This document shows, one piece after another, positions 36,416 through 63,999 of a stretch of DNA of 64,000 nucleotides. The position numbers were made by a program, and so were the translations under genes. Source of the DNA: a virus; the IMG/VR virus record IMGVR_UViG_3300030381_000254, positions 69,982 through 133,981 of that record; one strand, 5' to 3'. Under the pieces are notes generated by a model that had not been told where the DNA came from, did no database searches, and saw only the letters and a program-made list of their open reading frames with translations. Position 1 is the stretch's first letter. The number at the start of each line of letters is the position of its first letter.

Positions 36416-36571
36416 TAATAAAAGAAAGAAAAAATTAGCACCGTTTTCACAAACAGTGCTAATCATAATTTGATAATATCGAACTTAATTGCTTTAGACG
36501 ACAATTTTACTAATTGTCTTTAACTATGTCCATTTATAAGGATTTTAAGGGTTTTAAATTATAATAGTTTA

Positions 36572-37367: not shown

Positions 37368-38198
37368 ATGGTACATTTTGAAAAAATAAAGTTAACAAAA
37401 GGAATTTTTAAAGGAACTGAAGAGATAGAATTAGAAATTCCAGACATTAAATGGGTATTGTGGGATGGTGTTCCTCGTGGAGGAAAAAGAATTAATCATG
37501 TGAATTATTGGTCTATATTAAAAGTTTCAGATGAAGAAGAAGCAAAATATGTTAAGGATAAGTTAAAGAATATTAGAGCACATCAGATGTACTCATATGA
37601 ATTAATTAAAAATAAGATATGGGTTCTTGAATTAAATGATGTGGATAAGACGTATGATATACCACAAATGACAACAGCACATGATTTATACAGTACTTAT
37701 TTAAAAGATTTAGTATTTGTAGAATATACTAAGTATTTTAGGATATCTTCAGTTTTTAGAATAAAAGAAATAGATCATCCTGATTCTGTAACAGTACAAT
37801 CTGTAATATTGAATGGAAGATTTTGTTTTAATAGACCCTGTTATAATATTATGACTACTATTAATAATTGTCTTCCGAAAATGATAAATTTTTTAGGAAC
37901 AGGAGATATTTTTGTAGAAGTATTTAGTGGAAATATTGCAAATAAGTGGTGGTATTCTGCATTTAACAAAGCTATATTTAGTTATGATTTTGACCTAAAT
38001 TTTAATGAAGGAGATAATATAATTTGGGATGCTGATGTTCCAGATAGTTTTAATATTGATGATCTGTTAAGTTTATCTGTAGTTGATAAAAGTGAAGAAA
38101 ATGTTTCAGAAAAAGTAAAAGAGATTGAGAAAAGATTTAAAGAGTTTGAAGAAATCTTTTTAAAAATTTCTAAATTTAATGAACAATTTAAACAATAA
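37368..38198 (+). CDS. Hypothetical protein, 276 aa
   Basis: ORF only. Confidence 0.4.
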   Translation: MVHFEKIKLTKGIFKGTEEIELEIPDIKWVLWDGVPRGGKRINHVNYWSILKVSDEEEAKYVKDKLKNIRAHQMYSYELIKNKIWVLELNDVDKTYDIPQMTTAHDLYSTYLKDLVFVEYTKYFRISSVFRIKEIDHPDSVTVQSVILNGRFCFNRPCYNIMTTINNCLPKMINFLGTGDIFVEVFSGNIANKWWYSAFNKAIFSYDFDLNFNEGDNIIWDADVPDSFNIDDLLSLSVVDKSEENVSEKVKEIEKRFKEFEEIFLKISKFNEQFKQ

Positions 38199-38240
38199 TT
38201 ATGTTAAGGAGATAGAGATTTAATTTCTATCTCTTAATTT

Positions 38241-38266
38241 TCTTCAAATTTTTATATATGTATAAA
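38241..38266 (+). promoter_or_regulatory. Conserved phage promoter-like motif (variant)
   Basis: tcttcaaatttttatatatgtataaa lies about 270 nt upstream of groES. A terminator hairpin at 38384..38426 lies between the two. Confidence 0.4.
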
Positions 38267-38383
38267 TTTTAAATAACTATAATTATTATAGTAGTAATAA
38301 TGAAGAATGCTGAGATAGTGTAAAATTATTAAGAAGAGTATTATAGAGATATTGTACAAATTACATAGTTATGTGGATAAGGG

Positions 38384-38426
38384 ATAGAAGAGAACTAGTT
38401 CTCTTCTATTTATTATTTTGCTTTTT
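38384..38426 (+). terminator. Rho-independent terminator in GroES upstream region
   Basis: Hairpin atagaagagaactagttctcttctat followed by a T-rich tract. Confidence 0.6.
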
Positions 38427-49738: not shown

Positions 49739-49863
49739 AAACCTTAAAAACCTTATAATTGAAAAGAATGATAATAAATCATAAGTGAATTTAGATTATA
49801 ATATCTACTTAAGTAATAAAGCTTAGGTAGATTTTTTTATTTACGTTAATAAAGATTATAAAA

Positions 49864-50340
49864 ATGGAAAAAAGTTTTTTTAAAAAATTTATGCTTGGAG
49901 TTACTTCAAGTACTTTAAGATTTACACTATGGATAGTGTATTCTCTTGGATGTTATAGAAGTATAACATCTACATTAAAATTGTATGAAGATTATACATT
50001 AAGTAAATTAAGAAAAGAAGAAAATTGCTTAAAAAATATATGCAACGTTACTGGCTTAGATTCAGAATATTTAGAGAAAATAGTAAGAGTCAGAACTTCA
50101 GCTATTATTATAAAAGCTTTGGAAATTTCTGGAGCTAAAGTTGAGATTATGTCGTCTCCAGAAAAAATAAAAAAAGTTATTGAAAATCATTTTGGTATTG
50201 AAATTCAAGTAAATGAAAACGGTTGTTATAAATACTCTAATCAATCTGGATTTAATTGGGGATTAGAGTGTAGTCAAGAAAACAAAAGGAGATTTGAGTT
50301 GTTTAATATCATAATGATTATTTTAGAATCAAGGGAGTAA
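49864..50340 (+). CDS. Hypothetical protein, 158 aa
   Basis: ORF followed by a terminator. Confidence 0.4.
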   Translation: MEKSFFKKFMLGVTSSTLRFTLWIVYSLGCYRSITSTLKLYEDYTLSKLRKEENCLKNICNVTGLDSEYLEKIVRVRTSAIIIKALEISGAKVEIMSSPEKIKKVIENHFGIEIQVNENGCYKYSNQSGFNWGLECSQENKRRFELFNIIMIILESRE

Positions 50341-52122: not shown

Positions 52123-52149
52123 CCTTTAAAGCCTTATATATGTAATAAA
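52123..52149 (+). promoter_or_regulatory. Conserved phage promoter-like motif (AAAGCCTTATATATG...)
   Basis: cctttaaagccttatatatgtaataaa lies about 30 nt upstream of the small ORF at 52177. Confidence 0.5.
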
Positions 52150-52357: not shown

Positions 52358-52396
52358 AAGACTTAGGACTAGTCCTAAGTCTTTATTTTGCTTTTA
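52358..52396 (+). terminator. Rho-independent terminator after small membrane ORF
   Basis: Hairpin aaagacttaggactagtcctaagtcttt followed by attttgctttt. Confidence 0.65.
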
Positions 52397-63404: not shown

Positions 63405-63429
63405 CTTAAAAAGTACTCTAAAGAGACTT

Positions 63430-63534: not shown

Positions 63535-63999
63535 ATGGAAGAAAAAAAGAAAAAAGGTCCTGGTGATATTAGACAACTAGATTGGAGAGAAGCTATTCTT
63601 ACAAATCCTGAATACATGATAGGTAGTTTAACTCCAGACCCAACCGGAAAACAACCATGTGAAGGAGCATGTAATGCATTTAGAGAAATTATTGATAATG
63701 CAATTGATGTTCTGTATGATAATCCAGATTCTACTACTATAATAGTAGATACGGAAAATTTTAATGGATATAATTTTGTTGCAGATGATTCTTGGGGAAT
63801 TCCTATTAAAATGAGTGAAGTACCAGGAAAAACAATGGCACATCTTTCAATTAGTGCATTAAATTCTGGATCTAAATTTAATGGTAAAGGTGATGATACT
63901 GGAGCTCATATAGGTCGTCATGGTGTAGGTAGTTCTGTAACTAATTGTCTTAGTTCAGAGTATATATTATTATCTAAAATTACAGAAGATAATTATGAT
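63535..63999 (+). CDS. Type II DNA topoisomerase ATPase subunit (GyrB / T4 gp39-like), 3'-truncated by window end
   Basis: The start is the ATG at 63535. REIIDNAIDV resembles the GHKL motif EIVDNSIDE. GRHGVGSSVTNCLSSE resembles GLHGVGxSVVNALS. Confidence 0.65.
   Translation, partial: MEEKKKKGPGDIRQLDWREAILTNPEYMIGSLTPDPTGKQPCEGACNAFREIIDNAIDVLYDNPDSTTIIVDTENFNGYNFVADDSWGIPIKMSEVPGKTMAHLSISALNSGSKFNGKGDDTGAHIGRHGVGSSVTNCLSSEYILLSKITEDNYD

Follow-up and report, generated by a model that had tools for sequence, protein, structure and literature searches.

A strain-variable, candidate gene-less transcription unit upstream of groES in a human-gut jumbo phage

The spacer in front of groES in a phage of the human gut carries a promoter-to-terminator cassette (P1 to T2) that some strains of the species have and others lack. 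Our best reading, held with moderate confidence, is that this cassette is a gene-less transcription unit lying between two copies of the terminator-promoter punctuation of the phage. The cassette itself is probably dispensable. It belongs to known kinds of element, namely the promoter-proximal short transcripts of jumbo phages and cassette-mediated indels, and is not a new category.

The window analyzed here is a 64,000-nt stretch of phage DNA with 27% GC (positions 69,982 through 133,981 of IMG/VR record IMGVR_UViG_3300030381_000254). Structural genes occupy the minus strand from 1 to 31 kb, and a long plus-strand block begins at 36 kb. Megablast and tblastn searches with the locus and the upstream gene found no close relative among GenBank phages; GroEL recurs unchanged in many human-gut metagenome contigs of 250 to 376 kb, and a large phage family with 56 to 63% identical GroEL is represented by contigs of up to 390 kb. 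The window encodes a 1062-aa β-like RNA polymerase subunit (Pfam Rpb2_6, E = 1e-17) together with a weak β′-like fragment, and these polymerase subunit genes indicate a jumbo phage with its own multisubunit RNA polymerase.

Layout of the groES spacer and its variation among strains

A spacer of 336 nt separates a 276-aa ORF (37368 through 38198) from groES (38535 through 38792), which with groEL (38813 through 40438) forms the downstream operon (38535 through 40438; Pfam Cpn10 and Cpn60_TCP1). All features of the spacer lie on the plus strand, in the order T1, P1, an AT-rich body of ~120 nt, T2 with its U-rich tail, two weaker promoter-like sequences, and groES. T1 (38207 through 38235), the terminator hairpin of the upstream 276-aa gene, has 13 pairs and a T-rich tail (−14.1 kcal/mol, z = −3.3). 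P1 (TCTTCAAATTTTTATATATGT; 38241 through 38261) is a copy of the 20-nt promoter motif of the phage and lies 6 nt downstream of T1, so that the two make up a composite terminator-promoter module. The original prediction, which proposed a small RNA upstream of groES, had placed a promoter-like motif at this point, and its coordinates prove right to within 1 to 2 nt (26-mer at 38240 through 38265). The strong terminator that it described ~120 nt further on is also present, 121 nt past P1.

The short transcript is predicted to end at that terminator, T2 (38382 through 38426). T2 consists of a hairpin with a 13-pair stem (38382 through 38411; −14.6 kcal/mol, z = −3.5) followed by the U-rich tail ATTATTTTGCTTTTT (38412 through 38426), and thus has the stem-loop and U-rich tract of an intrinsic (factor-independent) terminator; the U-tract is interrupted, and the stem has only three G-C pairs. 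Both terminator hairpins are stable, and they are paralogs, T1 being the left and T2 the right copy of a duplicated terminator. Terminator-like sites are enriched tenfold in this neighborhood (6 in 5 kb; 0.6 expected). The second promoter-like stretch that had been noted before groES resolves into P2 (CCTAAATAATCTTAGTAATGA; 38432 through 38452), a weak motif copy of 8.9 bits that is near background and forms a second terminator-promoter module with T2, and P3 (CTCTTATAATTG; 38481 through 38492), a groES-proximal promoter core.

To compare strains, GroEL sequences that were identical or 99% identical served to collect 25 further loci of the species, giving 26 sequences with the window; GroEL is 99 to 100% identical among them. 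The unit is present in 11 of the 26 and absent from 15, and the region upstream of groES is otherwise unchanged in those that lack it. The unit goes with one allele of the upstream gene: it is always found with that of 276 aa and never with that of 293/294 aa; the two alleles share 67% protein identity. Unit-less strains have one hairpin after the upstream gene, joined directly to the T2 tail, and share this tail and all sequence downstream of T2. That the T2 tail also follows the only terminator of the unit-less strains would fit its real use. Hardly any strain variation is seen over the 108 nt that separate T2 from groES, and P2 is likewise almost constant, with a single substitution in two unit-less strains.

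The junction is best seen in strain L023, whose sole hairpin (2569 through 2601) aligns to both 38207 through 38239 and 38384 through 38416 of the window, with an identity of 83% to the left and 96% to the right. The double alignment and the shift in identity show the unit to be an indel of ~144 nt with its edges in two paralogous hairpins at a mosaic junction; the segment that is present or absent comprises P1, the body and the T2 stem. This position points to module shuffling as the origin of the unit. Our explanation, to which we give an even chance, is that recombination at terminator-promoter modules created a dispensable gene-less cassette or brought it in. The body would then probably derive from a small gene since lost, of which it would keep the leader and first codons, or be plain spacer; in either case recombination would have left it behind or imported it.

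Among the 11 unit-bearing sequences there are five sequence variants and four lengths (153, 166, 169 and 172 nt). The differences include deletions of 2 nt and 18 nt, an insertion of 2 nt and a duplicated 5-nt segment at the base of the T2 hairpin. P1 is the same in all of them except L015, in which its spacer has gained 1 nt and the T2 stem contains an A·C mismatch that is left uncompensated. By substitutions, the body diverges by 1 to 1.7% and the flanking genes by 1.2 to 4%; as the body does not exceed its neighbors, relaxed constraint is not demonstrated, the strains being too similar for such a test, and the lack of any rise counts against our preferred reading. What the comparison shows not to be conserved is limited to the length, the ORF and the presence of the unit.

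Two known kinds of genetic element resemble this arrangement. Phage morons consist of a promoter, a gene and a terminator inserted between two genes. Like a moron, the cassette is a self-contained transcription unit between neighboring genes, present in some genomes of a lineage and absent from others; unlike a moron, it holds no gene, and at most the decayed start of one. The second resemblance is to the PeSL cassettes of T4-type phages, which mediate indels in hyperplastic regions (Arbiol et al. 2010, PMC2839356; Comeau et al. 2014, PMC4122927). In both cases composite modules of terminator stem-loop and promoter stand between genes in variable regions, and indels between close genomes have their breakpoints in or beside the stem-loops; the terminator of the unit-less strains described here is a T1/T2 chimera. 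The groES spacer thus combines a repeated terminator-promoter module with strain indels that break within the modules. The likeness has limits: PeSL promoters are early promoters of the sigma-70 type read by the host polymerase, whereas P1 belongs to a family of TATG-ending 20-mers in a phage with its own multisubunit polymerase, and PeSL cassettes normally flank an ORFan, whereas the slot here is empty. The observations are evidence that shuffling in the PeSL style, described for T4-type phages, also occurs in an unrelated jumbo-phage lineage.

The body and the predicted RNA

Neither a conserved ORF nor significant structure was seen in the body (38262 through 38381). It contains a single ATG-started ORF, read directly from the sequence, MKNAEIV plus a stop codon (38300 through 38323), in agreement with the original prediction that no real ORF lies between motif and terminator. 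Its length depends on the haplotype: seven codons in the window, 20 in L015, 14 in L180 and none in L016, L020 and L021, in which the ATG has become ATA. Comparison with strains L016 and L015 revealed no conserved ORF of at least 20 aa on either strand of the unit, and none of that length is kept across the strain variants; minus-strand ORFs of 35 and 36 aa are not retained in L016 or L015. A small protein gene was rejected on these grounds, since ORFs of at least 20 aa change or vanish between haplotypes, and so was attenuation by a leader peptide, given the lack of conservation of the tiny ORF. The unit contains neither an RNA thermometer nor a CIRCE operator, and both were likewise rejected; a CIRCE-like repeat lies 2 kb upstream (see below).

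The ATG of the tiny ORF stands 40 nt after the predicted start site, which is the usual leader length at other promoters of the phage (20 to 43 nt); P1 has no start codon of a real gene at that distance. It is only this ATG that hints at an origin of the body in a lost gene, which is unproven. Searches for a coding remnant in the window, the relatives and GenBank phages (tblastx with the body as query, and tblastn with a reconstructed peptide of 22 aa, MKNAEIVKLLRREYYRDIVQIT) found none. Searches of the window and distant relatives with blastn-short returned only AT-rich chance matches to the unit or body, and relatives with 52 to 63% identical GroEL have no homolog of the unit. An exact 17-mer of the body occurs in 87 stretches of JGI metagenome contigs and 51 of GTDB genomes; all are chance matches, none of which extends past the word.

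The RNA itself was assessed by folding and by covariation, both of which the original prediction had proposed as checks. The body folds no better than its shuffled versions (−14.4 vs. −13.3 ± 2.7 kcal/mol, z = −0.42), and it is T2 that gives the whole unit its z score of −2.06. Of 44 pairs predicted by RNAalifold, none is compensatory among the five variants, which are nearly identical and give the comparison little power. Rfam 15 has no match at its gathering scores anywhere in the window, and relaxing the threshold to E = 10 for positions 38100 through 38640 gave only chance-level matches (E above 1); a scan for tRNA and tmRNA genes found none. When the body was paired with the 68 translation-start regions of the window, which is part of a genome of ~370 kb, the best duplex was equaled by 7 of 40 shuffled bodies.

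The proposal of a small RNA therefore divides in two. The promoter-terminator architecture makes a discrete transcript of ~155 to 167 nt a reasonable prediction, whereas nothing in these results supports a functional RNA. In our preferred reading, the multisubunit RNA polymerase of the phage would start at or near G38260 and most transcripts would end in the U-rich tail (38412 through 38426); a non-coding RNA of this length, beginning near 38260 and ending in the T2 tail, is thus probably made. It would have no sequence-specific job, and the sole likely effect of the cassette would be to place an extra terminator between the upstream gene and groES.

Short RNAs of this kind are known from phiKZ, in which promoter-proximal terminators yield RNAs confirmed by northern blotting, with examples of 71 nt and 141 nt and of unknown function (Putzeys et al. 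2024, PMC10914365). Both phages are of the jumbo type and encode multisubunit RNA polymerases of their own, and in both a terminator stands no more than 250 nt past a promoter and upstream of a gene. The phiKZ RNAs are observed, abundant and reported to be conserved within genera (PMC10914365), whereas the RNA of the window is predicted and varies between strains; here, moreover, a further promoter stands between the unit and the gene.

The phiKZ precedent, with its abundant, northern-confirmed RNAs (PMC10914365), counts against our reading and lends weight to an alternative, which we consider unlikely, that the unit is a true trans-acting small RNA gene. It would be a gene-less “moron” whose abundant RNA of ~160 nt pairs with or sequesters a host or phage target in an accessory role. 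The unit has its own promoter and terminator and no ORF, as such a gene would, and none of the 11 unit-bearing sequences has lost P1 or T2. Empty units also recur, which could mean selection for short RNAs: 4 of 14 intergenic promoters in the window meet a terminator-like hairpin before any ORF (38241 [+], 36550 [−], 49742 [+] and 63426 [+]), and related phages have three such units (L001) and one (L005). Against a small RNA gene stand a body with no fold signal, Rfam match, covariation or conservation beyond the species, the indels that it tolerates, including that of 18 nt, and the lack of a standout target among the 68 start regions.

A broader version of this idea is more doubtful still. 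The family of gut jumbo phages might carry mobile gene-less units (a promoter, 30 to 170 nt and a terminator) that are exchanged via recombinogenic modules and encode functional accessory short RNAs; examples would be decoys or regulators of the phage RNA polymerase, or strain-specific anti-host RNAs. If true, this would explain both the 4 gene-less promoters of 14 and the three tandem units of the relative. Were the RNA functional, this uncultured jumbo phage of the human gut, which encodes a chaperonin and an RNA polymerase of its own, would have a regulatory RNA that varies between strains; the RNA would also offer an entry point to the promoter and terminator code of the phage.

The groES promoter and related loci

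P3 lies 43 nt before the groES ATG, at a position equivalent to that of CTTATATATG in other phages of the family. Every relative examined (L001, L005, L004, L170, L172, L173 and L175) has CTTATATATG or a one-base variant of it 30 to 37 nt before groES. This family-conserved position implies that groES has a promoter of its own and that P1 is an extra; judged from the sequences, groES keeps its conserved promoter in all strains. The original prediction had itself named a plain read-through leader of groES as the alternative to a small RNA. Such a leader is made less likely by the proximal promoter of groES and by the 15 of 26 strains that manage without the unit.

A more elaborate form of the same idea, about as unlikely as a small RNA gene, is a promoter-proximal attenuator: P1 would be constitutively active, most transcripts would stop at T2, and conditional read-through past T2, dependent for example on a phage antiterminator or on the time of infection, would add to the expression of groES-groEL. 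The unit is immediately upstream of groES and in the same orientation, and two other promoters in the window meet a terminator and then a gene, so that read-through control may be used by the phage. At 49742 through 49832, a promoter of 21.0 bits is followed after 41 nt by a hairpin, with no further promoter motif before the gene at 49864; at 63426 through 63470, a terminator-like hairpin comes immediately after a promoter of 20.5 bits, again with no further motif before the gene at 63535. These units suggest that the phage uses read-through control or 5′ stem-loops in expressing its genes. Premature termination in 5′ untranslated regions is also documented in phiKZ, where more than 90% of the transcripts from one promoter stop at such a terminator (PMC10914365). 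At the groES locus, however, 15 of 26 strains use the family-conserved promoter alone, the folds show no evident alternative antiterminator pairing, and the length of the body is not conserved.

A model for an attenuator of this type is the PR′-tR′ region of lambda, the source of 6S RNA. It works by Q antitermination, which requires a qut site and the Q protein, and the downstream genes have no other promoter. Lambda and the cassette share a promoter, an untranslated transcript of ~150 to 200 nt and a strong terminator directly before a co-oriented operon; they differ in that groES has its own promoter and the unit is probably dispensable. P1 is thus not the sole promoter of the downstream operon, and unit-less strains rely on the groES-proximal core.

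The slot before groES is occupied differently in the relatives. L001, a 138-kb relative with 52% identical GroEL, has three empty promoter-to-terminator units in tandem before groES (3283 through 3616; period 144 nt, 2.3 copies, 78% matches). Its repeat consists of a terminator hairpin with a GUGA loop, a U-run and the promoter CCTTATATATG, separated by unrelated spacers of 50 to 90 nt. The hairpins have energies of −15, −15 and −9 kcal/mol, and one compensated change from C-G to U-A between copies indicates that the hairpin is what is kept. In L005 a promoter copy runs straight into a hairpin, and in other relatives the slot is just a short spacer or contains a small gene.

The promoter motif and recurrent modules

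Alignment of intergenic copies defines the promoter motif of the phage as the 20-mer CCTTnAAAnCCTTATAtATG. A position weight matrix (PWM) built without P1 finds 15 matches of at least 12 bits in the window, compared with 2.35 expected, and 14 of these lie in intergenic DNA, which makes up 7.7% of the window. With this leave-one-out matrix the score of P1 is 14.4 bits; the twelve copies used to build the motif score 17.5 to 28. It is intergenic and oriented with the downstream genes, as expected of the family, of which it is a genuine but weak member. Almost all copies of the motif lie in the plus-strand block or in the divergent regions (31.2 and 36.4 to 36.6 kb), the minus-strand structural block having a sole copy (940 through 920), and the motif probably marks one temporal class of genes.

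The motif is contiguous and ends in TATG, unlike a −35/−10 pattern. Sigma-70-like promoter matches are at background in the window (38 vs. 34.2 expected), and the sigma-70 scan was set aside as uninformative in DNA of such low GC content. A sigma-70-type early promoter read by the host polymerase was rejected because the motif differs and the phage encodes its own polymerase subunits. The late promoters of phiKZ offer an analogy, in that their TATG ends at the +1 G (PMC4666361). From this we infer that transcription from P1 would start at or near G38260. A promoter function of the motif is likewise inferred from its position, its conservation before groES in the relatives and the phiKZ analogy (PMC4666361).

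It is quite improbable that P1 is inactive and the region simply 3′ trailer DNA between duplicated terminators that end the transcript of the upstream gene: P1 ranks with the weakest copies of the motif, is missing the C residues that usually precede TTATATATG directly and carries the spacer insertion in L015, but its TTATATATG core is perfect, its sequence and its spacing from T1 match those of other terminator-promoter modules, and a match of at least 12 bits is expected by chance only ~0.006 times in a spacer of 336 nt.

Such modules are common in the window. Seven of the 14 intergenic promoter motifs lie 6 to 34 nt after a terminator, forming composite modules, and most promoters are 20 to 43 nt from a start codon. 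The well-supported TATG-ending motif and the terminator-promoter modules that mark mosaic junctions are useful contextual results whatever the fate of the RNA. An identical 32-nt promoter module, CTTTTATTATTCCTTCAAAGCCTTATATATGA, occurs at two distant sites (62935 through 62966 on the plus strand and 36424 through 36393 on the minus strand), a pattern that would fit the copying or exchange of promoter modules within the genome. A filled, moron-like cassette is found at 52123 through 52389, where a top-scoring promoter (27 bits) is followed after 34 nt by a 53-aa ORF (52177 through 52338) and a strong terminator (52352 through 52389). The predicted product has one hydrophobic helix and is of membrane type. 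Further pairs of promoter-like sequence and hairpin follow position 52389, up to 52596.

The divergent promoter region 2 kb upstream of groES contains a CIRCE-like inverted repeat, TTAGCACCG-N10-CAGTGCTAA (36435 through 36462; hairpin 36433 through 36464). The bacterial CIRCE element is TTAGCACTC-N9-GAGTGCTAA. On the minus strand, the repeat forms the terminator-like hairpin of a second gene-less unit, the promoter of which is at 36550 through 36530 (−); after it come another promoter (36413 through 36393 [−]) and a strain-variable gene. The 7-bp arms of the repeat are invariant in 17 loci, and its loop is inverted in L015. The body of this second unit has a small hairpin with one compensated change from C-G to U-A in L028 and L029.

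The RNA polymerase genes form a cluster (54995 through 62225) that includes the β-like 1062-aa ORF and the β′-like fragment of 333 aa. The Pfam match of the fragment begins mid-domain at residue 2, and the next ORF, of 370 aa, has only a TTG start. The long flanking spacers (55595 through 55771 and 57015 through 57244) share the arrangement CAACGACTATG...hairpin...ATATAGTC, with z scores of −2.2 and −3.0 relative to shuffled sequences; an Rfam search of these spacers returned nothing at E up to 1. They may be introns or structured RNAs that split a polymerase gene. The same CAACGACTATG/ATATAGTC motif occurs in the relative L005, near position 1805.
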